This document shows positions 2 through 63,235 of a stretch of 63,235 nt of DNA, one piece after another. The notes beneath the pieces were generated by a model, which worked only from the letters and a program-made list of their open reading frames with translations, ran no database searches and had not been told where the DNA came from. Numbering within the stretch: the stretch's first letter is position 1; each line of letters opens with the position of its first letter. Source of the stretch: Candidatus Micrarchaeota archaeon (GTDB lineage: Archaea > Micrarchaeota > Micrarchaeia > Anstonellales > Bilamarchaeaceae); contig CAZPWA010000002.1 in NCBI GenBank assembly GCA_964590665.1, forward strand, positions 1 to 63,235, given 5' to 3'. The position numbers and the translations under genes were made by a program.

Positions 2-475
2 AAACCAATAGACTCTGCTCCTGATTCATTTGCATTTCTTTTTTTGGATTTTTTACGATCAAACGGAATCCAAAGCGGAAAAATTTTGGAAATAGAGGGG
101 TCAAATCTTGCAAATATGAACCTTTTTTTCTCTAATCATTTTGAGCCTTCGGTCATGTCTCCAACTGATAAATCTGATTTAAACTTTGATCAATATGGAA
201 TTGCATTCTATTGCCATTCTCCCTTTGATTACTGGCCATTTGAAGATCTGCATTTCAATTTCATTTTTGATTTGCACACAAATTTTTCTTCATTGGATTT
301 AGGTTTGCTTCATCTATATGTTGAGAATTTTTCTCGAACATTGGTTTTAGGGGGTTTTGGGGCAGTTGCGTTTGAGGAATCTAAATCTCCCTATTTTCTC
401 TCCTTATTTGAAAAGCATGGCCTGGTTTTAGAAAAAAAATGTGAAAATGAAATTTTTATTTTAAGAAAAATCTAA
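2..475 (+). CDS. hypothetical protein, probably 5'-partial (frame open to window edge)
   Basis: The ORF track gives 44..475 starting at an internal TTG. The same frame has no stop back to nt 2 (KPIDSAPDSFAFLF-LDFLRSNG), so the gene likely starts left of the window. No motif recognised. Confidence 0.5.
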   Translation, partial: KPIDSAPDSFAFLFLDFLRSNGIQSGKILEIEGSNLANMNLFFSNHFEPSVMSPTDKSDLNFDQYGIAFYCHSPFDYWPFEDLHFNFIFDLHTNFSSLDLGLLHLYVENFSRTLVLGGFGAVAFEESKSPYFLSLFEKHGLVLEKKCENEIFILRKI

Positions 476-3159
476 TTTCTTTCTCCGTATTCTTGCAAGA
501 ATCTTTCGTACTCTAAAAGAAGTTCTCTTGTGATGGATGGTTTTCTTTTGGTAATTAATTCCAGTGCAGTTTCTGTATTTACTTTTCCTTCTTTTCCTGA
601 TATTTTTTCTTTCAATTTACTCATTTTGATATTTTGACAGATTGCTGCGATATCTGCACCTGAGAATCCTTCTGTGTTTTGGGCTAATTTTTCCAAATCC
701 ATTTCCTGCGCAATTTTTCCCAAATTCAACTTGAACATTTCTTTTCTGCCTTCTTTGTGAGGTTGTGGTATGTAGAATATTTTATCAAATCTTCCCGGTC
801 TTAAAATTGCACTATCTAAATTGGCTGGCTTATTTGTTGCTCCAATCACTAAAACCCCTTTCAATTCCTTTATTCCATCCATTTCTGATAAGAATTGGCC
901 TAATATTTCACTATTTACTGAAGTTCCTCTGCTTGGTGCAAATGTTTCTATCTCATCTATGAAAATAATTGAAGGGCTGTTTTCCCTTGCTCTGTTGAAC
1001 GCTTCTTTAATTACTGTTACTGCCTGCGTGTAGCCTTTTTGCATCAACTCTGCTCCGCTTAAAACCTGGAATGAGGCTTTAAGTTCATTTGCTGCGGCTT
1101 TAACAATCATTGTTTTTCCTGTTCCTGGAGGCCCAAAGAGCAGTATTCCTTTTGTTGGTTTTATGTCCAATTCTTTCATTTCTTTTTCATGCAAGAGCGG
1201 TAGTTGTATTGTTTCTAATAATGACTCCTTGACTTTATCTAAGCCTACGACATCTTCCCATTTTACGCCTCTCTCTTCCTTCTTATTTTCCTTCTTTTTT
1301 GAGGTGCTTCTTCTTTCAAAATCCAATTTGAATTGTTCGTATTTATCTAATTGTGCAATTGCAGTGCTGGGTTTGACATCGGAAATGGTTTCGACTATGT
1401 GCTCTTGAGTAATTGGAACTACCTTGTTTTTCACTATTGCTTCCTTTGCTGCTCTCTCCTTTGCTTCATTTACTATGTTTTTGATGTCTGCGCCGGAAAA
1501 TCTTTCTGTTTTCTTTGCTAAAATTTCCAGATTCATATCTTCTGAAACTGGTACTTTTGAAAGGTGCACTTTGAATATTTCTTTTCGAGCATCCAAATCC
1601 GGAAGGTGCATATAAATTATTTTATCAAATCTTCCAGGTCTTAAAATCGCAGGATCTAATTCATCTGGAATGTTTGTCGAACCTATGACTATGACACTTT
1701 TATCGCTTTTGACTCCGCCATCCATTTCCTGAAGCAATGTTGTCAAAACATTTGCTCCAACCGTATCCATCTTGTTTGTCCCTCTTTTTCTGGCAAGACT
1801 GTCTATTTCATCAAAAAACAAGACGGTTGGTGCATTTTTTCTTGCATTTGCAAATACTTCAATAACATTTTTTTCTGCTTCTCCAACCCATTCTGAGAGA
1901 ATCTGTGCACATCTTACTTCAATGAAATTGAATTTCAATTCCTTTGCAAGCGCTCTCATCATCATTGTTTTTCCTGTTCCTGGAGGTCCAAAGAGTAAAA
2001 TTCCGCTTGGAGGTTTCATTCCATATGTATATGCGATTTCTTTTTTCTTTAGTGGGATAAGTATCGCTTCTTTAAGTTCTGTTTTAACGTCGTTATACCC
2101 TCCTATTTCATCAAGTGTTTTTTCTGATGAAGCAAGTGACATATCTGACATTCCAAATTTTCCATATGCTTTCATTTTTTCTGCTCTTGTCACTTCACTT
2201 TCCTTTGAAATGTTGAATCCAATTTGCTCTAAAATTATGAAAAATCCTATTGAAATAATCACTTCAATTAAGAATTCTACTCTAAATTCTCCCCCGTATA
2301 AAATAGAAATTACATAGTTTCCAACGAGGGGAAGTAGAAGCGCAAAGGAAGCGATACTTTGTCCTCTTTTTTCTATTTTATTTGGCAAATACCCAATTAA
2401 ATAGAGGCCGATTCCCCAGAAAATCAGTTGTAAAAAGAGTGAATCTGAAAAAAGCATTATTCCTGTATTTTGAGCTATTTTTCCAACTGCGCTCCAAATT
2501 TTTATTAGATTGTCTGCATTTAGGAATCCTGAAAATGATGCTGCTGCATTTGATGGCAAACTTAAAAGTTCTGATGCAGCCTTGCTAAATCCAAAATCTG
2601 CTTCCTTCTCATACAAGGATAATTTTAGTGGTAAATATGCGCTGTTTTCGACAAACAATATTGAACTAAGTAGCAATATGACAAATATTGCCGGAATTGA
2701 TATTAGTGTGCTTCTTTTGGATCCAAGGTACAAACTTCCGGCAGCCATTCCTATTATTGTTAGTGTTCCAACTAATGGAAGTCCGCTTAGTGCAAAAGGG
2801 GAAAATATCAATATTTGAAGAAATGCTATTATGTTCCAATTTTCGTGTGCTCTAAAAAGAATTAATGCAAAGACTAAGAGAAAGAAAAACGCAAACGGTG
2901 CTGACTGATAAATTACCGAAATTATTCCAAAAAATGAACTTATTATGACTGCAACTTCTGGCTTTTTTATTGCAATTAATGCGCAAAAAATCGCTATGAT
3001 TCCAACAACCTGTATCGGAAAAAATGGAATTGCGCTCAAAAGCGCTATTGTTCCTAAAAATATCAAAAATCCATTCCAGAATTCTTTGCTGTTTTGAATT
3101 TGTTTTACTGTTGCCTTTACTGATTGGACTTGCAAGGATTCTGCCTTTACTTTTTGCAT
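472..3159 (-). CDS. membrane-anchored tandem AAA+ ATPase (CDC48/VCP-like D1+D2 behind a ~330-aa polytopic N-terminal domain)
   Basis: 895-aa ORF with two Walker A copies (GPPGTGKT), Walker B FFDEIDS and IFIDEIE, and two RPGRFD second-region-of-homology segments. The first ~330 aa are runs of hydrophobic helices (about 8-9 TM by eye) in place of a CDC48 N domain. Confidence 0.85.
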   Translation of the reverse strand: MQKVKAESLQVQSVKATVKQIQNSKEFWNGFLIFLGTIALLSAIPFFPIQVVGIIAIFCALIAIKKPEVAVIISSFFGIISVIYQSAPFAFFFLLVFALILFRAHENWNIIAFLQILIFSPFALSGLPLVGTLTIIGMAAGSLYLGSKRSTLISIPAIFVILLLSSILFVENSAYLPLKLSLYEKEADFGFSKAASELLSLPSNAAASFSGFLNADNLIKIWSAVGKIAQNTGIMLFSDSLFLQLIFWGIGLYLIGYLPNKIEKRGQSIASFALLLPLVGNYVISILYGGEFRVEFLIEVIISIGFFIILEQIGFNISKESEVTRAEKMKAYGKFGMSDMSLASSEKTLDEIGGYNDVKTELKEAILIPLKKKEIAYTYGMKPPSGILLFGPPGTGKTMMMRALAKELKFNFIEVRCAQILSEWVGEAEKNVIEVFANARKNAPTVLFFDEIDSLARKRGTNKMDTVGANVLTTLLQEMDGGVKSDKSVIVIGSTNIPDELDPAILRPGRFDKIIYMHLPDLDARKEIFKVHLSKVPVSEDMNLEILAKKTERFSGADIKNIVNEAKERAAKEAIVKNKVVPITQEHIVETISDVKPSTAIAQLDKYEQFKLDFERRSTSKKKENKKEERGVKWEDVVGLDKVKESLLETIQLPLLHEKEMKELDIKPTKGILLFGPPGTGKTMIVKAAANELKASFQVLSGAELMQKGYTQAVTVIKEAFNRARENSPSIIFIDEIETFAPSRGTSVNSEILGQFLSEMDGIKELKGVLVIGATNKPANLDSAILRPGRFDKIFYIPQPHKEGRKEMFKLNLGKIAQEMDLEKLAQNTEGFSGADIAAICQNIKMSKLKEKISGKEGKVNTETALELITKRKPSITRELLLEYERFLQEYGERN

Positions 3160-14475: not shown

Positions 14476-14573
14476 CTAATCATCTTCCTTATGTATTACT
14501 AATATTAGAAGTATATTATTAGAAAGTATTTGATTTATGATTTTATTTAAAATTAGTTGTGTTAATATAAGGT

Positions 14574-14687
14574 GTCAGCAGCAGCGTACTTTCCCACCCG
14601 AAGGGTAGTACACATAGCGCCGTGAAAAAGCTTAACTTCTGAGTTCGATAAGGGATCAGGTGTTTCCTTTTTCCTATGACCGCTGAC
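14574..14687 (-). rRNA. rrf: 5S ribosomal RNA (stand-alone, boundaries +/-5 nt)
   Basis: The minus strand reads gtcagcggtcatagg...cctgatccc.tatcgaactcagaagttaagc...ggcgc...gtactac...gggaaagtacgctgctgctgac. The ends pair (gtcagc/gctgac). It is a GC-rich island in AT-rich spacer. Confidence 0.85.
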
Positions 14688-41878: not shown

Positions 41879-41950
41879 GGCTACGATGGCGTAATGGCAG
41901 CGTGAGAGGTTGTGGCCCTCTAGGCCCGAGTTCGATTCTCGGTCGTGGCC
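41879..41950 (+). tRNA. tRNA-His: tRNA-His (anticodon GTG) with encoded G-1, no encoded CCA
   Basis: Acceptor gctacga/tcgtggc (one G-U pair) and U8. D stem gcgt/gcgt pairs with two G-U. Anticodon stem agagg/cctct with loop ttGTGgc. T arm ccgag-ttcgatt-ctcgg. An extra 5' G (41879) sits opposite discriminator C (41950). Confidence 0.9.
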
Positions 41951-41996
41951 CTTATTTTGTTTATCTGGTCTGTTTTCCTCTAAATGGAACGACAAA

Positions 41997-50240: not shown

Positions 50241-51146
50241 TTAATTCGCCTCTTCTACTAGTCTTTTCATTTCTTCATATGTTTTTGGTCCAACTACTGC
50301 TTTTCCATTTATGAAGAAAGTCGGAGTTGCATAAATATGCGAATCCTTTCCTTCTTGTATATATTCGCTTAGTGCAAGGCCTGTTTCATTATTGTCAAAA
50401 CAGATATTGAACTCGCTCATGTTCAATCCGACGTTTTTGGCAACTGTTTTTATTGCAAGTTCTCCTGAAGTTGTGCAACTTTCCATTCTTCTAAATATTT
50501 CTTCTCTCATCTCCCATGATTTATTTTGTTTTTCTGCGCACAAAACTGCTCTTGCAGCATCAAAACTGTTATTATGGTTTGGAAGTGGGAACGGTTTGAA
50601 CACATAATAAATAGTTTCATTCTTTTCCTTAAGCAATCTCTCTACTGTTGGTTCTGCTTTTTTGGTATATGGACAAGTGAAACATCCAAATTCAACAATT
50701 ACGACGCTTGCATTTGGGTTTCCACTGTTAATTCCTTTTAGTGATGTTGGGGCAATCAATTGCGTTGGGCTGCTAAATCGTCCATAATCTCCAGTTAAAT
50801 CGTTGAGTATGCATGCTTGCGTTGCATTTGGTCCATCACAATTTCCATAGACATAGAAATTATACCCTCCATAAATCATATATGCAAAACTTGCAATGCT
50901 TAAAAGTACAAAAATCCACGAAAGAATTGTAAAATTCCTGTTGATTATTTTTGCAATTGCTGGTGAGAATTTGAGTACTGATGAAACAATTTCTGCTTTT
51001 AATTGCTCATCCAGCCCCGTGTCACAGGGCTTAAACGTTATTGTTCTAAAGACACATCTAACTGCCTCCTTTGCAAGAGGCCTGTATTTAGCTGAAAAAA
51101 TTGATAAAACAAGAAAAACTGCGGCTGCAATTAAACAAAGAACCAT
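50241..51146 (-). CDS. membrane-anchored DsbA-like thiol:disulfide oxidoreductase
   Basis: N-terminal TM helices followed by a thioredoxin-fold domain with CxxC (EFGCFTCPY) and a conserved TPTFFING-type motif. Confidence 0.75.
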   Translation of the reverse strand: MVLCLIAAAVFLVLSIFSAKYRPLAKEAVRCVFRTITFKPCDTGLDEQLKAEIVSSVLKFSPAIAKIINRNFTILSWIFVLLSIASFAYMIYGGYNFYVYGNCDGPNATQACILNDLTGDYGRFSSPTQLIAPTSLKGINSGNPNASVVIVEFGCFTCPYTKKAEPTVERLLKEKNETIYYVFKPFPLPNHNNSFDAARAVLCAEKQNKSWEMREEIFRRMESCTTSGELAIKTVAKNVGLNMSEFNICFDNNETGLALSEYIQEGKDSHIYATPTFFINGKAVVGPKTYEEMKRLVEEAN

Positions 51147-51715: not shown

Positions 51716-52912
51716 ATGGCAAATTCAAAAAAGGCAATTCTTCTTATTATGGATGGAGTTGGAGATCTCCCAACTCCAAAAACTCCGCTTCAAGTGGCAA
51801 AAAAGCCAAACTTGGATTCCCTTGCAAAAAAAGGAAGCTTGGGTCAACTTTATCCAGTTAAACCTTTTGTCACTCCTGGAAGCGATACTGCGCACTTGAA
51901 TATTTTAGGTTATGATCCCTATTCAATTTATCAAGGAAGGGGTCCTTTGGAGGCATTAGGTTTAGGAATGACTCTTCTTCCTGGCGATGTCGCATTTAGG
52001 GCAAATTTCGCAACAATTAAGGATGGAAAAATTGTTGATCGAAGAGCAGGGCGAGTAGATACTCAAACAAGTTCAAAGCTTGCTCCTCTTCTAAATATGA
52101 AAATTGATGATGTTGAAGTGATTTTCAAAAGCGCATCTGAACACCGAGGAGCCCTTATTTTAAGAGGTCCTGCTTTATCTCCAGCAATAACTGCAACTGA
52201 TGCACACGAATCCGAAATTCTTCCTCAATGCACCCCCTTAAACAAGGATGGTGCAAAAACTGCTCGAATTGTTAACGAATTTACAAAAATTTCTATGGAA
52301 AGGCTTGCTTCTTCTCCTCTAAACTCATCAAGGTCTCTTCCGGCAAATGTTCTTCTTTTAAGAGGCGCTGCAACCTTCACTAAAGTTCCAACTTTTAAAG
52401 AAAAATACGGGATTGATGCAGCCTGCGTTGCAGGCGGTGCATTATACAAGGGCGTTGCCCGATATATCGGAATGAACGTTTTGGACGTTCCTCTTGCAAC
52501 TGGAGATAAAAATACTGATTTATCTGCAAAAGCAAAAGCTACTCTAGATGCTCTAAAAACCCATGATTTTGTTTTCCTCCACTTTAAAGCAACAGACAAT
52601 GCTGGTCATGATGGTGATTTTGCCCTTAAAAAGAAAATGATTGAGCGAGTTGATAAAGAATTAATCCCTTCTTTAGTCAAAAGTGGGGCCTATCTGGTTG
52701 TGACAGGGGACCACTCGACTCCTGTTTCAAGAAAAGCCCACTCTGGCCATCCCGTTCCGTTTTTAGTTTATGGAAAAGATGAGAGGCCTGATAAAACCAA
52801 AAAATTCGATGAGTTTGAATCTGCTCAAGGTTCTCTTGGAAAAATAGATGGACAAAATGTAATTCCTCTTATTTTGAATTTATTAGAAAAAGGTAAAAAA
52901 TACGGAAGTTAA
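51716..52912 (+). CDS. apgM: 2,3-bisphosphoglycerate-independent phosphoglycerate mutase, archaeal type
   Basis: [24 protein letters not shown] and [15 protein letters not shown], characteristic of ApgM. Confidence 0.9.
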
Positions 52913-52938
52913 AAAAAATTTAAAAATTTTAATTTTTT

Positions 52939-53544
52939 TTATTGTGCTTGTACTACTCCGCTCAATGTTGCAACTGCTAATTTTTCTATTCCTGCAACAT
53001 CTCCCTGAGATGTATATACTATTGCCAAACTTCCCTTAAATTCAGAGTTTGGTGCAAGTTGCATTATTGCTCCTGTATCTGCATTGTAGCAATTTACTGT
53101 AGTTACTGTACTTGTGTTAGTTCCCAATACTCTAGATCCTCCTTGTGGGATTGATATTGCTGTTGATAATCTTGGGATAACCTGTGCTTTTTGGATGTTT
53201 GCAGCTGGTGCGCTTGAGCATCGAACTCCAAGAACATTTATTTGTCCATTTTGCTGATTATCTAGTTGGAACACCAATCTTACGTTATTTGAAGAGTCTG
53301 CTAAAATTGCATGCTTTTTAACATTGCACGAAAGTCCTGGCTGGCTAAATTGACAGTTTTCTGGTGGCTTTAATGTTGGCAATACTACTGTTACCAAAAC
53401 GGCCAAAACAATTAGAATTACAACAAGTGCAACTCCATATGTCATCAAGTATTCCATCATTGCCTGTCCTTTATGGGCAGCTGGGATGCTTGCAAGTCTT
53501 TCCTTTTTTTGTTTTTTGTTTTTTTCAACTTTTTTCTTGGTCAT
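52939..53544 (-). CDS. archaeal type IV pilin-like protein (class III signal peptide)
   Basis: KGQ/AMMEYLMTYGVALVVILIVLAVLV matches the class III signal (KGQ-x-x-x-E-[FY]-L plus a hydrophobic helix). It is the last gene of the ATPase/platform operon. Confidence 0.8.
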   Translation of the reverse strand: MTKKKVEKNKKQKKERLASIPAAHKGQAMMEYLMTYGVALVVILIVLAVLVTVVLPTLKPPENCQFSQPGLSCNVKKHAILADSSNNVRLVFQLDNQQNGQINVLGVRCSSAPAANIQKAQVIPRLSTAISIPQGGSRVLGTNTSTVTTVNCYNADTGAIMQLAPNSEFKGSLAIVYTSQGDVAGIEKLAVATLSGVVQAQ

Positions 53545-53564
53545 TTTTTCACCAACTCGAATGT

Positions 53565-54650
53565 TTATACTAAAGTTGCAAATACACTGTCTAAGAATCC
53601 TCCAATTAGGGTATAGACTGCATATGCAACTATCAATATGAATGGCAGGTATTTCATTCCCTGGTTTTTAGTTCCTGATCTAATTATACTTACTATGAAT
53701 GATGATATTAGTGCAGTTACAAAAATCATTGGAACTGCAAAATAAAAGAAATCTTGGGAGCTTATTGCTGGGCCGCTGAATTTAAGTGCGCTTAATGCAC
53801 TAAACGATCCCCCTAGGGCATTTGCCCCGCTTAGGTCTCCTGCTCCAGATATCTGCGGTGCTATTTTTTCAAAAATCTGGATTATTTTTCCTCCTATTGC
53901 AAAGAGAAATGGCGCTCCAAATGCGGATGCTATCAAAACAAACATCTCATATATTGTAAGTGATGCTGCAATTTCTTTTCGCATAATCACGGTGTTTCTT
54001 ACATCTTCTGCTGTTTTTTCAAGTATGCTAGTTAGTTCTCCTCCTGTTGTGGATGCTTGTTTAAGGAGCATTATTGTTCTTCTAAATGTTCTTGAATCAA
54101 ATCTTGTTGCTAATTTATCTAATGATATTTCAAGTGTTTCTCCAGAAAAAGCTCCCTTTATAGTTTCTTTTATTTCAGTCGACAAAACTCCAAATTCAGG
54201 TTTTGCTGAATACCAAAGAGCCTGATCTAGTGTCATTCCTGATTTTATGTTGGATCCAACCAAAAGAAGAAAGTCTGGAAGGTTAGTCTCTAATTTTGTT
54301 CTTCGATTATCCGCATTCATCAAAAGATATGTTGTTGTAAGTCCTCGGATGCTTATGTAAACGACTCCTAGTGAAATCAAAAGCATTATTATTGCAGTTA
54401 CGAAAAAGGGGAGAGTTAATCCAAGTATTTGCATTGTTAGTTTATCAAAAAATTCCACTGCTGGCCTGTGCAAAACTAGGATCGTTGTTAGGAAAAATGT
54501 TCCAACTATTATGTTGATGCTTATGTAGCCCGCAAATGATTCAGCTGGAAGTTTGATTCCTGCTGCGCCTATTTTTCCTTCATAATCTTTGATCTGGTTT
54601 CTTGTGAAAAACAAGCGTCCAAATTTTTCAAATATTGTTTCGTTTGCCAT
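53565..54650 (-). CDS. type II secretion system F-domain platform protein (TadC-like)
   Basis: A single T2SS-F domain (SNIKSGMTLDQALWYSA...LLKQASTTGGELTSILEKTAEDV) flanked by TM helices. Confidence 0.8.
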   Translation of the reverse strand: MANETIFEKFGRLFFTRNQIKDYEGKIGAAGIKLPAESFAGYISINIIVGTFFLTTILVLHRPAVEFFDKLTMQILGLTLPFFVTAIIMLLISLGVVYISIRGLTTTYLLMNADNRRTKLETNLPDFLLLVGSNIKSGMTLDQALWYSAKPEFGVLSTEIKETIKGAFSGETLEISLDKLATRFDSRTFRRTIMLLKQASTTGGELTSILEKTAEDVRNTVIMRKEIAASLTIYEMFVLIASAFGAPFLFAIGGKIIQIFEKIAPQISGAGDLSGANALGGSFSALSALKFSGPAISSQDFFYFAVPMIFVTALISSFIVSIIRSGTKNQGMKYLPFILIVAYAVYTLIGGFLDSVFATLV

Positions 54651-54663
54651 TTTGTTTCCCTCT

Positions 54664-55569
54664 TTAGTTTAGATATCTTGGCCTTGAACTTTCAATCAAC
54701 CCTAAAAAGAGAACTTGAATCAAGGCAACCAAAACTCCGATTCCCATCAATGAAACTGAGTTTATCGGGCTCTTTCCTCCTACTATTGACGAAATTATTG
54801 CTGTTAGTAGTACTATTCCCAAAGTTGGAACAACTATTCCCAAAACCATATAGAGCATGACAAAAGGAGTTAGTCTTTGGCTGTATTCTTTTAGCGAAAT
54901 TAATTGCTCTTTTGAAATCTGATCCAAAATACTCTCCAGGCTGCTTCCAATATCTGCACCGCTGTTGATCGAGTTTGCAACTTGGATCATTGTGCGGTTA
55001 AAGTATGCCGATGGGTTATTCATTGTAACTTCCTTTATTGCCTGGTTTGCCGGGACTCCTAAAACTATTTTATCTACTATTTTTGAAATTTCTCTACTTG
55101 CAAGTCCATAGTCCTTTGTTGCTCCTGCAAAAGAATCAAAAAGAGGCATTCCTGATTTGAGTGCTATTGCAATGTGCCTTGCTGCAAAAACTATTTCATA
55201 GTCAATTTCCCTTTGTCTTCTTATCGTTATCAGTGTTGGGTACATCAAAAGGTAATTATATGCTCCAACTGGGATAAATAGTATCAAAAGTATTATCAGT
55301 ATCAGCGCTGAAAAATTTGATTTTGAAATTGCTTCAAAAATGAAATCTTTTGTAAATAATAACAAGACTATGATAAGTCCAAATGAGAGTATCAATGTGC
55401 TTCGCAATGTTTTTTGCACAAACTCCTGCGGACTTATCGTCAAATCTGCCATTTTGAGTTTTTCCTTTAAGTCTGCATTTTTAGATGCCAGATATTCCGA
55501 GACACTAAAGATTAGGTCTTTTCTATTTTTTGAACTTTCTCCCTGTCTTTTTATCTCTTCATTTTCCAT
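54664..55569 (-). CDS. type II secretion system F-domain platform protein (TadB-like)
   Basis: A single T2SS-F domain (ALKSGMPLFDSFAGA...VANSINSGADIGSSLESILDQI) flanked by TM helices. Confidence 0.8.
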   Translation of the reverse strand: MENEEIKRQGESSKNRKDLIFSVSEYLASKNADLKEKLKMADLTISPQEFVQKTLRSTLILSFGLIIVLLLFTKDFIFEAISKSNFSALILIILLILFIPVGAYNYLLMYPTLITIRRQREIDYEIVFAARHIAIALKSGMPLFDSFAGATKDYGLASREISKIVDKIVLGVPANQAIKEVTMNNPSAYFNRTMIQVANSINSGADIGSSLESILDQISKEQLISLKEYSQRLTPFVMLYMVLGIVVPTLGIVLLTAIISSIVGGKSPINSVSLMGIGVLVALIQVLFLGLIESSRPRYLN

Positions 55570-56988
55570 CTAATCCGTCTCCGGGAAATACTTGTCTATG
55601 ACCTTTTTATTTACTCCTTTTTCCTTTGCAATTGCAATTTTTGCTTTCAATACTGCTTTGCTCTTGCTCAACTGCTTTTTCTCGTATTTTTTGTAAACTT
55701 CCGGTTTGTTGGCTTTAAGGTAATTTAGAAGTGCTGTTGGAGTCATCGTGTCTATTTCTTCAATTTCCTCGATTCCTTTGGAATCTTCAACACTTGCTTC
55801 TCCAAATACCTTTGCTGTCGCATTATCTATGAGCGCATCTAATTCTTTTGCAATTCCAATTTTCACTTCTTCAAACTCATTCGAGTATGCTTTGATTGAT
55901 TGCTCTATCTGGTCTTCCTTGTCGTGTGCTTCACTGATGTTCTTTAACTCGGATCTTTCCATTGCAATTATCTTATCTCTCTTTTCCTGAGTTTCAGTTC
56001 CGATTCTCTCAATTATTTCCTTTATTTTTGAAACAAGTGCTTCGAATTCTGTTTTTCTTTCATTATCGTTTTTTGCAGAACTTATTTTTATTGAGAAATC
56101 TTCTCTAAGTTTGTTTAATTCATCATTATATCTTTCATCTATCTCATCTGCAACGGAATTTGCTTCATTTGTGTATTTTTCCAATATTGCATCTATGATT
56201 ATTGGCTGATTTTGTGCTGTTGGGACTTTGGTCTCTTCTTGAATTTGGCTTTCTCCGCTTAAGAGTCTCTTGAGCATGGAAATTTCTGTTTTTATTTCTT
56301 CTTTTTTGGAAGTGACTTTTTCCTTAAACAACTGCTTTGTCAACTCTAGCATGCGCATCTTGATTTCTTTTTCGCTCATGTTGTTTGGTACTGTTATTTT
56401 TGGTTTTGGCAAATTCTCTTCCAAAAATTCAGGAACTTTTCTTACTTCTCTTTCAGTTTCTGCAATCAAGGGCTCTCTGCTTTCTATTTTTTGCTCCTTT
56501 ATTGCTACTGGTTTTTGCTCTTCAATTATGGATTCTCTGCTTGTTTGTGGAATTTCTCTTTCAATTATTTCGCTTTGTTTTGGCGAATCTTTTTCAAATT
56601 CAATTGCAGGTTTTGTTTCTTTTTCTAATTCTATTTCAATTTCAGGTTTTGGACTCTCTTTAACCTGTGCAATTTCCTGTGCAGTCACTAGTGTTTTTTC
56701 TGTATTTTTTTGCATCTCCAGTTCGATTTCTTTTGCAACTTTTTTCTCTTCTTCTTTGATTTGAGGAGTTCCTTTGATTAGGATTCCGCTCTTGTATATG
56801 CTTATTATTTTTTCGACTTTTTCGTATTGATTTATCAAATCTGCAAATTCGACTCTCTGCATTTCTATTTCAAGTAGTTTATTGCAGTCTTCCTTCTTCT
56901 GTGTTTCATATGGAAGTGCATTTTTTTCTATACTTCTTGCTTCTTCAACACTTTCTTGAAAGTTCATAATCGTTACCTCGATTCCCAT
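55570..56988 (-). CDS. E/K-rich coiled-coil protein, unknown function (pilus-operon member)
   Basis: 472-aa ORF dominated by Glu/Lys/Ile heptad-like low complexity. It overlaps the ATPase gene end by 16 nt and abuts the TadB-like start. Confidence 0.6.
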   Translation of the reverse strand: MGIEVTIMNFQESVEEARSIEKNALPYETQKKEDCNKLLEIEMQRVEFADLINQYEKVEKIISIYKSGILIKGTPQIKEEEKKVAKEIELEMQKNTEKTLVTAQEIAQVKESPKPEIEIELEKETKPAIEFEKDSPKQSEIIEREIPQTSRESIIEEQKPVAIKEQKIESREPLIAETEREVRKVPEFLEENLPKPKITVPNNMSEKEIKMRMLELTKQLFKEKVTSKKEEIKTEISMLKRLLSGESQIQEETKVPTAQNQPIIIDAILEKYTNEANSVADEIDERYNDELNKLREDFSIKISSAKNDNERKTEFEALVSKIKEIIERIGTETQEKRDKIIAMERSELKNISEAHDKEDQIEQSIKAYSNEFEEVKIGIAKELDALIDNATAKVFGEASVEDSKGIEEIEEIDTMTPTALLNYLKANKPEVYKKYEKKQLSKSKAVLKAKIAIAKEKGVNKKVIDKYFPETD

Positions 56989-58526
56989 GGCTTGTTTTTA
57001 TTGACCAAGTTCATGATTTCACTTGGCTCCTGATAATATCTTGAAACAATGGATCCAACTTGATCCACCTTATCATAATCATTTTTGACCATCCAATTTA
57101 ATACCTTGGATTTTTCTTCAATGTCATTTTCGATGTCTTTTTGGTCAAATCCGGCATATAATTCAAGCATGTTTGCAAGGCGGCTCATCTTTCCAATTCC
57201 TCTAACCCGATCGTTTTTGACTTCCCACCTGTAGAGTGTATTTGCTTTTGCCGCATCTGTTATTTCTGAAAATTCCAAAACTCTTCTCATATTGAGCCTT
57301 CTGTGTCTAAACATTACTACTAATCCTGCAAGTGCATCGAGCATCGCCGGAGGCACATTTATGGGAGGGTTTGTCAAACGCGAAACTGCCTGCTCTGAAT
57401 TATCTGCATGAACTGTTGCATAAACACTGTGCCCGGTGTGCATTGCTTCAAACATGACTTCTGCTTCTTTCTGTCTTCTTATTTCTCCGACAAACATTCT
57501 ATCTGGTCTTTGACGAAGTGCATTGACCATCAAATCCAGCATCGTTATTTCTCCCTTTCCTTCTGGGTTTGCTTCTCTAACTGTCATTGGAACCCAATGC
57601 AAAAAGGTTGGAAGAGTCAATTCTCTTGTATCTTCTATTGTGATTATTCTCTGGTTTGCAGGAATCAATCCGGCCATTGCATTCAAAAATGAGGTTTTTC
57701 CGCTACCTGTTCCCCCTGCAACAATCAAGGAGAGTTCATTTTGGATGCACATCCAAATCAATGATGCCATTTCTATGTCTATTGTTTTTGTTTTCAAAAA
57801 GCTTGTTATTGTCCAAGGATTTTTGGAAAACTTTCTGATCGTTATTGTATTTCCATATGATGAAATTGGAAATAGTGTTGCATTCACACGGTCTCCTGTT
57901 GGAAGGTGTGCATCCAAAAGTGGATTTAGTATGTTTATCTGTCTTCCGACTTTTCTTGCAATTGTGGATGCATAATCATATACCTGCTCTTCATTTTTTA
58001 TCTTCAGATTAGTTTTGCACCATCCGAATTTTTTGTGATATACCCAAACAGGTTCTTTTGAATTGTTTATTACAATTTCTTCCAATTGCTCATCTGATAA
58101 AAGTGCTTCTATTTCTCCAAGTCCTAATGTGTTTTGGAGAAGATACACTGCAAGGATTTCTTTTTTGTCTTCTGGAAGAGATGGGAAATTTTTAGTTAGT
58201 ATTTTTTTTGCAGCTTCGAGGAATTTTACTTTGACTCCCGAGTATTTTTTGGGATCTAATATGTCTGCTATATCTAACTTTACTTCTGTTACTAATTCTC
58301 CCTTTAATTTTGTTTCCAATATTAATTTGGTTCCTTCTGCAATTCCCTGTATTGCAACTTCGTATTTTGGAACATATTCGGTTACTGAATCCTTTTTTAT
58401 TATTCTGACTTCGACCAAAATTCCTTCGCTTTTGAATGTGTATGAACTGACTAGTATGTTTTTTGATTTTGCTGCAATCTCTTCTTCTTTAACTGCCCCC
58501 TGAACTTCTATTTTTTCATCTGCCAT
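56973..58526 (-). CDS. type II/IV secretion-family ATPase (archaeal PilB/FlaI/TadA-like)
   Basis: Walker A GGTGSGKTS, IITIEDTRELTL, Walker B-like RMFVGEIR and His box VYATVHA. The N-terminal domain has LGLGEIEALLSD...EEIVIN typical of archaeal FlaI/PilB. Confidence 0.92.
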   Translation of the reverse strand: MADEKIEVQGAVKEEEIAAKSKNILVSSYTFKSEGILVEVRIIKKDSVTEYVPKYEVAIQGIAEGTKLILETKLKGELVTEVKLDIADILDPKKYSGVKVKFLEAAKKILTKNFPSLPEDKKEILAVYLLQNTLGLGEIEALLSDEQLEEIVINNSKEPVWVYHKKFGWCKTNLKIKNEEQVYDYASTIARKVGRQINILNPLLDAHLPTGDRVNATLFPISSYGNTITIRKFSKNPWTITSFLKTKTIDIEMASLIWMCIQNELSLIVAGGTGSGKTSFLNAMAGLIPANQRIITIEDTRELTLPTFLHWVPMTVREANPEGKGEITMLDLMVNALRQRPDRMFVGEIRRQKEAEVMFEAMHTGHSVYATVHADNSEQAVSRLTNPPINVPPAMLDALAGLVVMFRHRRLNMRRVLEFSEITDAAKANTLYRWEVKNDRVRGIGKMSRLANMLELYAGFDQKDIENDIEEKSKVLNWMVKNDYDKVDQVGSIVSRYYQEPSEIMNLVNKNKPWESR

Positions 58527-60239
58527 TTATTTTCCCTCATTTTCCCATAGTTTCTTTATGAGTTTTTTAAGTTCCTCTCTCTTCTTTCTGTATTCCATTT
58601 CCTCTTCCTTTGTCAAGTCTATTTGTTTTTTGATTTCTTCTTTTTTCTCTTGCGCAATCTTTGCAACCTGAGGAGTTTCTGGAACTGGCTCTTCTTTTCT
58701 AATTGAGAGTAGTTTTGCTTCCCTTGCAATCAAAGTTATCTTTTTATTTAGGTTTTCCGAGCTTTCTGAAAGTTCATCTATTGTATCTTTTATTTCCTGT
58801 GCTATTTTTTGTTTTTCTTTAATTGTATTTACTGTGTTTACTATTTCCTTCATCTCTGGTTTTTTGAGAAGCTCAGCAACGTTTTTACTCTCCTTTTCAA
58901 TTTCTTCTTCTTTGTTTAGCGCTTCCTTAATGGAGCCGTCCAATTCGCCCTTCATTTTTTCTATTCTCTTTTCAAATGTCTCTATTGAAGCTGCGATTTT
59001 TTCACGTATTTTCTGATAAGCAAAATAAGTTGATTTTTCTTCTTCAAGTGAGTTTGCAATTGAATCCAATTCCTTCTTTATCTGAACTAACTTATCATCA
59101 ACTGCAAAATTCAGCTCTTCAAATTCCATTGACGCTGTTGCATTTCCGGAAACTGCATCTATTATTTTAGCCAAGGCTTCAACTTTTTCATCTATTTCGT
59201 TTTGCTCTTTCTCTATTTCCTGAAGTTTTTCCCTAGTTTCACTCTCTTTATCTAATCTTTTTATTGCTCCCTTGGCATTTGTGTATGTTTGATCAAATCG
59301 TTCAAGGACTTCTCTGTTTTCTTCAATTTTTTGAGCTATCTCATCTACTCTTTTTGTGACATTTAGTGCTTCTTGTGAAACTTCTGCCATTTCTTCTCTT
59401 AATTTTTCAAGAACTGATGCCTTTTCATCTATTTCCAAAAACACTTCTTTAACTGCGCTCGCTCCTTCAATCGCATCTCTCAAATCTTCCTTTAATTCAA
59501 GTCCCTTTGTTCTGATTACTAAAAATTCTTTTTTGAACTGATCAAATTTCTTCTTTATTTCTGCAACCGATGGAAGGTTCAGATCTTCTTCCTTGTTTTT
59601 TATTGTTTTGGTTTTTACCTGAGATATTTTTTTCTTTATTTCTTCAATTTGAGAAACCAAACCTTCTGTTTTTTCGATGCTTTTCTTATTCTCTTGCTGC
59701 ATCTCTTCAATATTAATTGCTCTTAATTCGTTTCTCAATTCTTCTAGTTCCTGGTTTAGTTGCTCTACTTCAACCTTGTTTTTCTCAATTAATGATTCAA
59801 CTTCCTTAAATCCATCTTCCTGGGGTATTGCAGGCATTTTTTCAAGTTCTTGTTCCACTTTTTCAAGCTTGCTTGCTGTTTTTGCGTAAAATTCGTTGAA
59901 TGATGTTATGAATTCTTTCAAGTCTTCCCTTTCCTTATCCATCCTTTCTTTTATCTGCTCTGATTCATCTGCAATTTCTCTTTTTTGTGTAACTATTCTT
60001 TCTTCTTTTTCAACTACTTCTTCCTCGGTTGGCTTAATCCAAACCAGATAAACTTTTGTGAGTCTATACTCTATTCTTAAGATTCCTTCTTCTTCAAGCA
60101 CTCTTGACCAGTCTTCAATAGTTTCGCTTGGAATGTTTAGTGTTTTTGATGCTTCTTCCAATTCGACCTTGCTTTTTTGTTTTACAAGTCGAACTAAGGC
60201 ATCTACTCCTGTAGTAATTAGTAGTTCATCGAACTCCAT
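58527..60239 (-). CDS. coiled-coil protein with N-terminal winged-helix-like module (first gene of the pilus operon)
   Basis: 570 aa. The N-terminal ~70 aa (VDALVRLVKQKSKVELEEASKTLNIPSETIEDWSRVLEEEGILRIEY) resemble the repeat module of the divergent gene. The rest is an E/K-rich coiled coil. Confidence 0.6.
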   Translation of the reverse strand: MEFDELLITTGVDALVRLVKQKSKVELEEASKTLNIPSETIEDWSRVLEEEGILRIEYRLTKVYLVWIKPTEEEVVEKEERIVTQKREIADESEQIKERMDKEREDLKEFITSFNEFYAKTASKLEKVEQELEKMPAIPQEDGFKEVESLIEKNKVEVEQLNQELEELRNELRAINIEEMQQENKKSIEKTEGLVSQIEEIKKKISQVKTKTIKNKEEDLNLPSVAEIKKKFDQFKKEFLVIRTKGLELKEDLRDAIEGASAVKEVFLEIDEKASVLEKLREEMAEVSQEALNVTKRVDEIAQKIEENREVLERFDQTYTNAKGAIKRLDKESETREKLQEIEKEQNEIDEKVEALAKIIDAVSGNATASMEFEELNFAVDDKLVQIKKELDSIANSLEEEKSTYFAYQKIREKIAASIETFEKRIEKMKGELDGSIKEALNKEEEIEKESKNVAELLKKPEMKEIVNTVNTIKEKQKIAQEIKDTIDELSESSENLNKKITLIAREAKLLSIRKEEPVPETPQVAKIAQEKKEEIKKQIDLTKEEEMEYRKKREELKKLIKKLWENEGK

Positions 60240-60301
60240 GACTTGATTAAATTGAGTATGTTAATAAAGATTCTCCTCATTTAATAACTAACTGAATTTG
60301 C

Positions 60302-61786
60302 GTGATTGAGATGGATCTCTCTAATGATTACAAAATTAAAAAGAACGAAAAAGGCCCTCTTCAGAGGTTCAAGAATCAAAATCTTATCCTAAAAAAATTC
60401 GGAGACCTTGGCCTTTCTGTCTATAAGGCAATTACTGGAAAACGCTCTTTAAGCGAATTAAAAAATGATGTTTCTGTTGATCCAAAACTATTTGATCAAA
60501 TGATCGAGTTCATGGAAAAGAATGAACTAATTATTCTTGAAAAACCCTCTTCCTCCAAGGACGAACCTTCTGTTGATTCAGAGCCTGTTTCAGAAGAGGT
60601 TCCTATTGAAATGCCAAAGAAAAAAACATCTTCCAAAAAGAAAGTTGTCGATGAGCTTCCTCCAGAACCCGAGCCTCCAAAAGAAGAGATTGCTCCAGAA
60701 CCATCTTACTCTGAATCCACTTCCTCTTTTGATGATGAAATAAAGCCAATCGATTTGGATCTTCCATCAACTGATTCCAAAAAGAAAAAAACTGTTGATG
60801 AGCCTGAACCATTGGATTTTGTTGAAACTCCAAAGGAAAGCGAACCTATCGAAACTCCTCCACAAGAACCTTCAACTCCAGAGCCTGATATTTCTCCTAT
60901 TGAAAATACTTCTACTTCTCAAAGCCGTTCTCTTGGAACTCTTGAGCAGATAATTTTCGATAAATATGGTGATTTGGGCCTCAAAGTCTACTCTTTGATT
61001 GACGGTCAAAGAACTGCTGAAGAAATAATGCGCCAGACTGGTCTAACAGAATCCAAATTAGTTGAAATTCTTGACTTTTTGGATGAGCAGGGAATAATCA
61101 AATTGGACTATCCTAGAAATAATGCCCCTCCTTCTTCTCCCCCATTGCAGCAAAATGCATTTTCCGGGGGAAGCTCAAATTATGCTGCTCCTTCAAACTA
61201 CACAAACCCTCAATCAAATTATGCTGCTCCTTATTCTCCCCCATCGTCACAACCAACTTCTGGCGGTTTCTCTCCTATGATCGAAGGGGAAACAAAAAAC
61301 GATGAAAATTCTCCAGTTCCATTTCCTGTTGAAATTTATTCAAAAGCTCCTGTTGATATTGTTCGGGCAGTTCAGCTTAAGACAAAAATTCTTCTAAAAT
61401 ATGGAGATCGGGGAAACAAGATCATGGAAATGATTGATGGCAAAAATGATGTTTTAGATATCTGCCTAAAACTTTCCCTTCCGCTTTACACTGTTTATGA
61501 ATTAATCAACTTTATGATGGAAAATGGTCTTCTAATTAGAAGGGCTTCTTCCCGTTCTGAAGTTAAATCCAAATACGGTGATGAAGGCTACACAATATAC
61601 AAAAGATATGGCCGCGAAGGTCTTCTCTTTTATGAACTTGTTGGTAAGGAAATGGGCATAAAAGCAATGGCTGATATGGTTTCAAAGGATAAAAACAAGG
61701 TTCTTGAAATGTTTATTTTCATCTACCAGGTTTTAGGTGTTGAGCTTCCTGTTGATAAGAATCTTCTTGCCAAAGAACTCAACTAA
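60302..61786 (+). CDS. protein with four winged-helix-like repeats separated by Pro/Ser/Glu-rich linkers
   Basis: Four ~50-aa modules share [KR][FY]GD.G..VY..I.G.....E......L....L.E.L.F....G.I. Module 1: KKFGDLGLSVYKAITGKRSLSEL...MIEFMEKNELIIL. Module 2: DKYGDLGLKVYSLIDGQRTAEEI...ILDFLDEQGIIKL. Module 3: LKYGDRGNKIMEMIDGKNDVLDI...LINFMMENGLLIR. Module 4: KRYGREGLLFYELVGKEMGIKAM. Confidence 0.6.
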   Translation: MIEMDLSNDYKIKKNEKGPLQRFKNQNLILKKFGDLGLSVYKAITGKRSLSELKNDVSVDPKLFDQMIEFMEKNELIILEKPSSSKDEPSVDSEPVSEEVPIEMPKKKTSSKKKVVDELPPEPEPPKEEIAPEPSYSESTSSFDDEIKPIDLDLPSTDSKKKKTVDEPEPLDFVETPKESEPIETPPQEPSTPEPDISPIENTSTSQSRSLGTLEQIIFDKYGDLGLKVYSLIDGQRTAEEIMRQTGLTESKLVEILDFLDEQGIIKLDYPRNNAPPSSPPLQQNAFSGGSSNYAAPSNYTNPQSNYAAPYSPPSSQPTSGGFSPMIEGETKNDENSPVPFPVEIYSKAPVDIVRAVQLKTKILLKYGDRGNKIMEMIDGKNDVLDICLKLSLPLYTVYELINFMMENGLLIRRASSRSEVKSKYGDEGYTIYKRYGREGLLFYELVGKEMGIKAMADMVSKDKNKVLEMFIFIYQVLGVELPVDKNLLAKELN

Positions 61787-62075
61787 TTCTTGAAACACTT
61801 ATTCTTTCTATTTCTTCAATTTCCGCTTTTTCTCTTTTTGCTCCTTTTATTGAAATTATCTTTTCCAAATTGAATTCAATTTCTATTTCTTCCTTTCCAT
61901 TTTCTGCCCATTTTTTTGCTTCTCTTATGTCTTTTTTTCCACTTAGAAAGAGAAGGAATTCCAAATCAAAATTTTTTGCAATGTTTATTTTTCTTTTAAA
62001 AGTTTCTTTTGCGCTTTCAAATGCAACTGTTATTTCCTCTTTGGAAACTTCTTTTTTAGTGAGTATTTTGAACAT
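61779..62075 (-). CDS. small protein, possibly a short Cgi121-like KEOPS subunit
   Basis: 98 aa. DLEFLLFLSGKKDIREAKKW resembles the Cgi121 LE.LLY.SG.RQI..A segment. Weak and from memory only. Confidence 0.3.
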   Translation of the reverse strand: MFKILTKKEVSKEEITVAFESAKETFKRKINIAKNFDLEFLLFLSGKKDIREAKKWAENGKEEIEIEFNLEKIISIKGAKREKAEIEEIERISVSRIS

Positions 62076-62665: not shown

Positions 62666-63235
62666 ATATTTATTTGACTTTGGTTAATTCGAAACAAGAA
62701 GATAACCAACATAATACATTTCATCAAGATTTCAATACCACTTTGGTTAATTCGAAACCCATTAGAAAAACACCTTCATTTGGAGATATTCATATTTCAA
62801 TACCACTTTGGTTAATTCGAAACGGGCACTTCTCCGATTGAAATATTTAACTGATCAATATTTCAATACCACTTTGGTTAATTCGAAACGTTTGTGTGGG
62901 CAACTGCTCGATAGTGGCAGGGTGATTTCAATACCACTTTGGTTAATTCGAAACCATATTTATTTGAGCACAATCTGATTCTTTTGTATTTCAATACCAC
63001 TTTGGTTAATTCGAAACAAAGACACGGAAGGCAATTATTCCCAGAAAATATATTTCAATACCACTTTGGTTAATTCGAAACTTTGCGAGATTTTGCATGG
63101 TTATTTTTGCATCTAAATTTCAATACCACTTTGGTTAATTCGAAACCTCAGGGAAATAAAGCAACTCCAACTGCAACCCTATTTCAATACCACTTTGGTT
63201 AATTCGAAACCAGGAGTAAGAATCAGACCATCTTC
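62666..63235 (-). CRISPR. CRISPR array, 30-bp repeat, 8 perfect + 1 degenerate/truncated repeat, truncated by the window end
   Basis: Plus-strand repeat atttcaataccactttggttaattcgaaac starts at 62729, 62794, 62860, 62925, 62988, 63052, 63117 and 63181. A degenerate copy ends at 62695. Spacers are 33-36 bp and all different. The reverse complement gtttcgaattaaccaaagtggtattgaaat ends in attgaaat (an ATTGAAA[CG]-like tag). With the degenerate repeat at the low-coordinate end, this suggests minus-strand transcription with the leader beyond 63235. Confidence 0.95.

Follow-up and report, generated by a model that had tools for sequence, protein, structure and literature searches.

Which machine is encoded by a compact set of genes in which a secretion ATPase lies between two large, highly acidic proteins, and what are these proteins doing next to it? 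The question is raised by a locus in a stretch of 63,235 nt (in the following, the window) of contig CAZPWA010000002.1, assembly GCA_964590665.1, from a Candidatus Micrarchaeota archaeon (Anstonellales, Bilamarchaeaceae), which agrees with the DPANN-like cell assumed in a preliminary description of the same DNA. Six minus-strand open reading frames (ORFs) lie head to tail between 52939 and 60239, and the ORF listing confirmed each of them as first described. They encode the accessory protein CC1, the ATPase, a second accessory protein CC2, the platform proteins F1 and F2 and a pilin; a protein with repeated winged helices (wH-repeat protein) is encoded divergently. On a slim balance of probability, we read the locus as a vertically inherited type IV pilus operon of Micrarchaeota, in which CC1, CC2 and the wH-repeat protein act as a cytoplasmic scaffold or adaptor at the motor. 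Those DPANN archaea that have been cultivated require direct contact with host cells, and type IV pili are leading candidates for establishing it. The accessory proteins considered here are conserved, strongly selected and completely uncharacterised.

The pilus operon

The type IV filament operon proposed initially, with an ATPase, a split platform and one pilin, was borne out by the searches. Of the elements that define the superfamily, a secretion ATPase with a Walker A motif, polytopic T2SSF platform proteins and a pilin with a class-III signal were present. In the case of the ATPase (56973-58526, minus strand, 517 aa), a T2SSE match (PF00437, 5.5e-37) was obtained and the Walker A motif reads GGTGSGKTS. 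Its best PDB matches were the archaeal GspE2 2OAP (218 bits, 2e-63) and FlaI 4II7 (210 bits, 6e-61); we refer to it as a secretion ATPase of the FlaI/PilB family. Among the NCBIfam models, FlaI gave 280 bits, below its cutoff of 550, and TadA 196 bits.

The platform consists of two proteins, F1 (54664-55569, minus strand, 301 aa) and F2 (53565-54650, minus strand, 361 aa). Each carries a single T2SSF domain (PF00482, 5.9e-17 and 3.5e-13, respectively) and four to five transmembrane (TM) segments, four in the case of F1. The two are paralogous (hhalign probability 97.9%, E 5e-13), and F2 aligns to residues 260-481 of the 484 in UpsF and 179-464 of the 465 in ArlJ, i.e. to the C-terminal half of two-domain platforms. 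This split had been taken as atypical for archaea, a view that the literature does not support. In the Epd-like/Tad clade, the defining feature is a pair of single-T2SSF genes that arose by fission of one gene (Denise et al. 2019, PMC6668835). Archaeal pili of clade 1 as a rule, and those of clade 2 commonly, have two tadC-like genes (Makarova et al. 2016, PMC4858521). A split platform is ordinary for archaeal pili.

The last gene (52939-53544, minus strand) encodes a class-III-signal pilin precursor of 201 aa, with a basic leader, a predicted cleavage KG/QAMMEYL leaving Gln at +1 and Glu at +5, and a hydrophobic helix of 21 residues; the class-III signal reads KG/QAMMEYLMTYGVALVVILIVLAVLV. 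It is the sole ORF of at least 45 aa with such a signal within the window. Approximately 55 orthologues, 175-221 aa in length, share the nearly invariant N-terminus (K/R)GQA(A/V/M)MEYL(M/I)TYG, with the cleavage after the first G. As for the Pfam models first suggested, PF00437 and PF00482 matched as given above, whereas the pilin remained without any Pfam match, the Class_IIIsignal model included. The pilin orthologues also have a conserved Cys just past the N-terminal helix (...APE(T/S)C...), and at 50241-51146 (minus strand), 1.8 kb from the pilin gene, a membrane-anchored DsbA/thioredoxin-like protein is encoded; a disulfide link between the two observations is possible.

In agreement with the preliminary description, no A24 prepilin peptidase (FlaK/PibD/EppA) was present among the multi-TM ORFs of the window. 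The prepilin peptidase of archaea is usually unlinked to the pilus genes; Micrarchaeon Mia14 has one FlaK-like peptidase (MIA14_0570), unlinked, and two pilus loci (Golyshina et al. 2017, PMC5498576).

Comparison with the Epd pili of Methanococcus maripaludis and with Epd-like/Tad systems gave a mixed picture. The fission form of the platform is shared, i.e. two tandem single-T2SSF genes beside one ATPase, as are Gln+1 and Glu+5 of the pilin; the sequence G/QAMMEY fits the Flp-type motif G/XXXXEY. Unlike the Epd/Tad major pilins of about 50-80 aa, however, the pilin has 201 aa, and the operon is without an EppA-type peptidase with nine TM segments, a TadZ/FleN-like ATPase and a minor-pilin set. 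By bit score the ATPase is also closer to archaeal GspE2 and FlaI than to CpaF (164 bits). Of the further elements of the bacterial Tad pilus, the secretin RcpA, TadD and the TadE/F/G pseudopilins, none is present in the six-gene operon. Membership of the archaellum was rejected as well, given the FlaI score of 280 against 550 bits and an operon without Arl genes: it contains neither an ArlH/KaiC-like gene nor an archaellin or ArlF/G, and Pfam and NCBIfam gave no match to any of these or to ArlC/D/E and ArlX.

The packing of the genes is tight. The CC1 gene (58527-60239, minus strand, 570 aa) abuts the ATPase gene at 58527/58526, its stop codon being followed directly by the ATPase ATG, and the CC2 gene (55570-56988, minus strand, 472 aa) abuts F1 at 55570/55569; gaps of 13 nt (F1-F2) and 20 nt (F2-pilin) separate the remaining pairs. 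These junctions were as first reported. The 16-nt overlap reported between the ATPase and CC2 genes depends on the choice of start codon: it exists with the first ATG of CC2 only, and a start at Met8 (56967) leaves a gap of 5 nt. Because a GAGGT Shine-Dalgarno (SD)-like motif lies at SD distance upstream of Met8, and because the closest homologue (P0121, 94% identical) has 465 aa, this second start is the more likely one, so that CC2 is probably a protein of 465 aa. SD-like motifs also precede the ATPase, F1, F2 and pilin genes.

Signals that could delimit a transcript were found at both ends. In the AT-rich intergenic region of 62 bp (60240-60301) that separates CC1 from its divergent neighbour, a TATA-like sequence, TTTATTAA, precedes the CC1 ATG by about 26 nt. 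A T-rich tract with T5 and T8 runs (52905-52938, minus strand) directly follows the pilin stop codon and is a candidate archaeal oligo-T terminator; within the 7.3-kb operon there is just one other T-run of at least 6. The TATA-like box was seen before CC1 only and the oligo-T tract after the pilin only. Judged by sequence, this putative promoter and terminator, together with the packing, fit one transcription unit, in which the six genes would be co-transcribed.

The accessory proteins and their conservation

CC1 consists of an N-terminal winged helix followed by long helices. Its AlphaFold2 model (mean predicted local distance difference test, pLDDT, of 71) shows a three-helix helix-turn-helix (HTH) at residues 2-50 in a winged-helix domain of about residues 1-70, and further helices are predicted at 72-133, 142-174, 177-211, 225-291, 295-363, 365-458, 461-515 and 523-568, with the invariant P223 and G365 coinciding with helix breaks. 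Four helices have a strong heptad periodicity of 3.5 residues (z = 4-10). Because the heptad phase is not coherent over the whole protein, we describe CC1 as a segmented coiled coil, not as a single rod. Foldseek against the PDB gave nothing with E < 0.001 for CC1, the sole meaningful match being that of the N-domain to winged helix-turn-helix (wHTH) factors, on which it superposes well (5duk_B, root mean square deviation of 0.9 Å over 51 residues); the PDB profile search returned generic coiled-coil or apolipoprotein-type matches only. The protein is highly charged (net -32), and in its winged helix (net -4) the third helix is acidic, the recognition-helix region being SETIEDWSRVLEEE. A P-loop (G-x4-GK[ST]), TM segment, signal peptide or class-III signal was not present in CC1 (maximal KD19 of 0.97).

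Homologues of CC1 were found in large number. The 172 full-length ones have a constant length of 560-595 aa at 34-40% identity and are named ‘hypothetical’, ‘chromosome segregation ATPase’ or ‘Smc’, with a single ‘FlaC’ assigned by the Joint Genome Institute. The first 75 residues or so are the most conserved part, with the pattern MEFDELLITTGVDALVRL...WARVLEEEGI..IEYRLT..YL.W.

In the case of CC2, the architecture is modular. Conserved blocks cover residues 16-60 (within an N-module of about 16-70), 211-243 with the motif KKMLELTKxLFKEK, 270-390 and 410-470, and residues 75-205 are a variable stretch rich in P, E and K. In the AlphaFold2 model, residues 110-199 are disordered (pLDDT about 33), residues 264-395 form a three-helix bundle (pLDDT about 90) and residues 400-467 a small helical C-module. 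The hydrophobic periodicity of the bundle is 3.6 residues, as opposed to the 3.5 of a heptad repeat. CC2 is thus not the giant coiled coil it had been thought to be, and of the more than 1000 codons of coiled coil first counted for the two proteins, the approximately 500 residues of heptad-type long helices in CC1 remain. CC2 also carries a net charge of -21 and has no TM segment, P-loop or signal peptide (maximal KD19 of 0.65).

A single-sequence, word-indexed search with CC2 gave 4 matches, as E/K-rich words swamped the candidates; a profile of its C-terminal half and local profile searches in the loci were then used. Wherever a CC2 homologue has an organism name, it comes from Micrarchaeota; the homologues are annotated as ‘hypothetical’ throughout and have no Pfam domain. 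Neither the sequence profile, which returned generic hits of coiled-coil or apolipoprotein type as with CC1, nor the fold (Foldseek of the AlphaFold2 model, nothing with E < 0.001) gave a specific PDB match. The orthologues in the CC2 slot range from 75 to about 690 aa, and versions of 210 aa (L055, L056) keep the N- and C-modules only. From these end modules retained in short orthologues, the variable spacer and the restriction of homologues to Micrarchaeota, CC2 therefore looks like a Micrarchaeota-specific tether with two ends. In the most distant Micrarchaeota loci (L060, L074, L079), the slot ORFs between ATPase and F1 showed no profile link to CC2.

The third protein, of 494 aa, is encoded at 60302-61786 on the plus strand. 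Self-alignment of its profile revealed four winged-helix modules (probability 99%) connected by linkers rich in P, S and E. It gave no PDB sequence match and no match to a curated family, apart from weak Pfam matches to wHTH models (HTH_47, 2.7e-6). The modules are weakly similar to the N-domain of CC1 (hhalign probability 48%, E 2e-4), and a common family is a possibility. Like CC1 and CC2, the wH-repeat protein is without TM segment or P-loop and is acidic (net -21). A 98-aa ORF rich in K and E (61779-62075, minus strand) converges on its gene with an overlap of 8 nt at the 3' end; this ORF recurs in the same place in Micrarchaeota loci (phmmer E as low as 2e-14) and matched no family.

To describe conservation, ATPase homologues from 80 species-level genomes (48-80% identity) were used, almost all of them from Micrarchaeota (Micrarchaeia, Bilamarchaeaceae, Anstonellales) and a few from Aenigmarchaeota; loci with too short a flank are left out of the adjacency counts. 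The genes are usually arranged as ribosomal protein S8e (-), small ORF (+) and wH-repeat (-), then CC1, ATPase, CC2, F1, F2 and pilin (all +), then apgM (-), and this order is identical in the closest relative (L083). The F1-F2 pair was found in 66 of 68 loci, a CC2 orthologue in its slot in 64 of 76, the pilin in 56 of 67, CC1 as the gene immediately before the ATPase in 49 of 70, and the wH-repeat gene divergently next to CC1 in 41 of 60; all seven genes are together in 35 of the 53 loci with full flanks. The non-synteny in relatives that would speak against the preliminary reading is thus not seen for CC2 and is seen in part for CC1, whose place beside the ATPase is not universal. Because the locus is syntenic across most sampled Micrarchaeota and is set among housekeeping genes, it is probably a core trait rather than an island.

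Two variations were seen upstream of and within the ATPase gene. In two Micrarchaeota lineages, the ATPase gene is immediately preceded, on its own strand, by a giant ORF of 2541 or 1875 aa with a hydrophobic N-terminus (L015:170-7795 and L035:1896-7523, respectively), probably a surface protein judging by its sequence; the L035 locus starts with the 3' part of a CC1 gene, and the giant ORF lies between it and the ATPase. Additionally, many Micrarchaeota ATPase orthologues (L033, L039, L043, L066, L021, L032), though not the ATPase of the window, have a K/E-rich N-terminal extension of 30-70 residues, which is found in most lineages without an adjacent CC1 and also in some with one.

Selection on the genes was estimated as the ratio of non-synonymous to synonymous substitution rates (dN/dS, Nei-Gojobori) against L083. 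The values were 0.031 for the ATPase, 0.050 for F1, 0.030 for F2, 0.151 for the pilin and 0.119 for the wH-repeat protein. With 0.039, CC1 is about as constrained as the ATPase, and CC2 reached 0.082; because of these values, both ORFs are genuine genes under strong purifying selection, as are all six ORFs of the operon (0.03-0.15).

The winged helix of CC1 is not confined to this locus. When residues 1-80 were searched with phmmer against 1.84 billion representatives, 1013 representative clusters matched, 172 of them at E <= 1e-10. In nearly all of the 150 matches listed, the CC1-type domain is N-terminal in a protein of 370-730 aa. Every context examined outside Micrarchaeota, i.e. in Aenigmarchaeota (L072 and L073), Woesearchaeota (L081), a ‘DPANN group archaeon’ (L084) and the loci L076 and L085, has a gene for a winged helix with coiled coil followed by T2SSE, T2SSF and T2SSF; the N-terminal winged helix of these genes shares the motif WA/WS...LEE(E/Q)GI...Y(R/K)L. 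For this reason, we regard this gene as a cross-phylum signature of DPANN pilus loci. CC1 is shared with other DPANN phyla, and only loci of Micrarchaeota type showed CC2 and the wH-repeat protein.

Other architectures were found in the same search. One protein (P0209) consists of five winged-helix repeats with P/E/K linkers and resembles the divergent neighbour in the window. Two others of about 450 aa (P0286 and P0298, the latter labelled Micrarchaeota; loci L086 and L087) combine a large N-terminal region with a single hydrophobic segment and with a winged helix as C-terminal cytoplasmic tail; P0298 is on short contigs, and pilus genes were not seen nearby.

These observations are to be set against a published one. 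Hamm et al. (2024, PMC11291902) described two conserved CpaF/TadC loci with coiled-coil proteins (CCPs) in cluster-2 DPANN and Undinarchaeota, expressed in proteomes, with resemblance of the CCPs only to reovirus sigma-1 and nucleoporins. The locus in the window is similar in its CpaF/FlaI-type ATPase, its TadC-type platforms and its adjacent coiled-coil protein of generic similarity, CC1 directly abutting the ATPase gene, and the slot upstream of the ATPase is taken by CC1-type genes in Aenigmarchaeota and Woesearchaeota, both of them lineages named in that paper. Because the same winged-helix and coiled-coil gene precedes the ATPase and the two platform genes in other DPANN archaea, CC1 is probably the CCP of those loci, a likeness of locus position and description. 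The organisms differ, however: the published loci are from cluster-2 DPANN and Undinarchaeota, whereas Micrarchaeota belong to cluster 1. Moreover, the main text of Hamm et al. does not mention an N-terminal winged helix, CC2 or a neighbour with four winged helices.

The pairing of a pilus with a coiled-coil protein in DPANN is thus already known. The accessory ORFs had initially been called unassignable, which is correct insofar as neither CC1 nor CC2 matched a family in Pfam, NCBIfam or the PDB (Pfam and NCBIfam giving sub-threshold coiled-coil and wHTH noise), and incorrect insofar as coiled-coil proteins of DPANN CpaF/TadC loci had been described. As far as we could find, there is no published account of such a locus in Micrarchaeota, of a winged helix at the N-terminus of CC1, of CC2 or of the wH-repeat partner. 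Altogether, the preliminary description was largely right and overstated atypicality and novelty; the finding extends a published observation and is not a new kind of machine.

Role of the accessory proteins

Since a membrane segment is absent from all three proteins (CC1, CC2 and the wH-repeat protein), we interpret them as scaffolds or adaptors associated with the motor. In the proposed mechanism, a hexameric ATPase of FlaI/PilB type would power a membrane platform of two half-size T2SSF proteins, and this platform would assemble the class-III-signal pilin, which would be cleaved by a prepilin peptidase encoded elsewhere in the genome. CC1, CC2 and the wH-repeat protein would line the motor on its cytoplasmic side as a scaffold or adaptor layer, with the acidic winged-helix domains as protein-protein docking modules rather than DNA binders and with CC2 possibly tethering two partners at a variable distance. 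Such a layer could be functionally analogous to ArlCDE/ArlX of the archaellum or to PilM/TadZ of bacterial pili, and the pilus as a whole could serve in host attachment. As regards the apparatus for host contact or transfer suggested in the preliminary description, CC1 and CC2 would not themselves be its surface or contact structures, since both are without signal peptide and TM segment.

Proteins of a comparable kind are known from other filaments. The archaellum accessory proteins (ArlC/D/E, ArlX, ArlH) are likewise soluble or peripheral and partly coiled-coil; their genes lie next to that of a FlaI-type ATPase, and a ring or scaffold in the cytoplasm has been proposed for them. A sequence or fold match to the FlaC/D/E or FlaX families was not obtained with Pfam, NCBIfam or Foldseek. 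Makarova et al. (2016, PMC4858521) also described an intracellular coiled-coil family, arCOG07564, in the halobacterial loci of subclade 4F and proposed it to be a regulatory subunit. By description, this is again an intracellular coiled-coil protein tied to an archaeal pilus locus, and ATPases of subclade 4F also occur in nanoarchaea; a winged-helix N-domain is not reported for arCOG07564.

Several observations weigh against a scaffold at the motor. CC1 is not beside the ATPase in 21 of 70 loci. In several lineages (e.g. L033, L039, L061-L065), ATPase, CC2, F1, F2 and pilin are retained and the upstream 8 kb contain no CC1, so that the protein may be dispensable or have its gene at another site. 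CC2, in turn, is not a core component, as the Aenigmarchaeota and Woesearchaeota loci examined have no gene in its slot. The low predicted template modelling score (pTM 0.28) of the CC1 model means that the relative arrangement of its helices is not fixed by the model. Furthermore, we infer the physical association with the ATPase, and the winged helix could still bind DNA.

A regulatory DNA-binding role of the winged-helix proteins is the main rival, and one that we consider unlikely overall. In such a case, CC1, the wH-repeat protein or both would be transcription regulators that bind the divergent promoter of 62 bp, with the coiled coil serving for oligomerisation only, as in TrmB-type proteins. 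The wHTH fold of the CC1 N-domain, which superposes on Lrp, DeoR and archaeal transcription-factor domains, the weak Pfam matches to TrmB, ArsR and HTH_47, and the position of the wH-repeat gene, divergent from a short shared intergenic region as is classic for regulators, all point in this direction. However, the recognition-helix region and the winged-helix domain as a whole are acidic, and a length-constrained coiled coil of about 500 residues goes far beyond what dimerisation needs. The occurrence of the same winged helix at the cytoplasmic end of TM proteins (P0286, P0298) and in a protein with five repeats of it (P0209) is better explained by a docking module, and CC1 abuts the ATPase gene and is equally constrained. 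Two further rivals were considered. As exported or surface factors for attachment or penetration, the coiled-coil proteins would be delivered by a pilus-like machine to contact or breach the host, a very unlikely role because CC1 and CC2 are without any export signal, be it a signal peptide, class-III signal or TM segment. The idea derives from the likeness to reovirus sigma-1 and nucleoporins proposed by Hamm et al., and the CC1 profile does touch sigma-1 (6gaj, E 0.03) and Nup p62 (3t97, E 0.035); the giant ORFs found between CC1 and the ATPase (L015, L035) would also be in line with it. These matches are, however, two among about 120 generic coiled-coil ones with equal or better scores (SMC, IFT81, haemagglutinin HA2, designed bundles), Foldseek added nothing below the threshold given above, and both proteins are highly acidic, with CC1 starting with an otherwise typically intracellular winged helix.

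The annotations of the source databases would make CC1 an SMC/Rad50-like chromosome or cytoskeletal protein, kept beside the pilus genes by chance or for co-regulation only. CC1 indeed matches the coiled-coil models ASRP, SMC and Rad50 of NCBIfam (1.9e-6 to 4e-4), at 15-27 bits against cutoffs of 300-1000, and its absence from the side of the ATPase in 21 of 70 loci would suit a chance neighbour. We rejected this highly improbable identity: there is no ATPase head with a Walker A motif or P-loop, the matches cover coiled-coil segments only, and chance would not be expected to place a winged-helix and coiled-coil gene right before the ATPase in at least three DPANN phyla. The labels ‘Smc’ and ‘chromosome segregation ATPase’ are mislabels of CC1.

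Going back to the scaffold at the motor, a further-reaching version, which we regard as quite doubtful, can be formulated. Here, the acidic CC1-type winged helix would be a docking domain specific to DPANN that connects the pilus motor with other cell-envelope proteins, and a cytoplasmic lattice would couple surface or host-contact receptors to pilus assembly or retraction. The three architectures would correspond to the head of a coiled coil beside the ATPase, to four or five beads on disordered strings (the neighbour in the window, P0209) and to the tail that single-pass proteins with large extracellular domains extend into the cytoplasm (P0286, P0298). If true, this would be a symbiont-specific control layer without counterpart in characterised type IV filament systems. 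In any event, the cross-phylum winged-helix and coiled-coil signature, the modular anatomy of CC2 and the winged helices on membrane-protein tails are concrete targets for interaction mapping and cryo-electron tomography.

Other features of the window

Outside the pilus locus, a few further features were detected. Downstream of the S8e gene, a CRISPR (clustered regularly interspaced short palindromic repeats) array at 62729-63210 contains eight exact copies of the 30-nt repeat ATTTCAATACCACTTTGGTTAATTCGAAAC with unique spacers of about 34-36 nt and runs to the window end at 63235; it is preceded by an AT-rich, leader-like region, and a degenerate partial copy of the repeat lies at about 62675. 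At the other end, a double-AAA (Cdc48-like) ATPase of 895 aa is encoded at 472-3159 (minus strand). In a simple Kyte-Doolittle scan, its first 300 residues or so contain about eight hydrophobic segments, and such a membrane-anchored double-AAA architecture, if real, would be unusual. The only structured RNA genes detected in the window were a stand-alone 5S rRNA (14573-14687, minus strand) and a tRNA-His(GTG) (41880-41951, plus strand).

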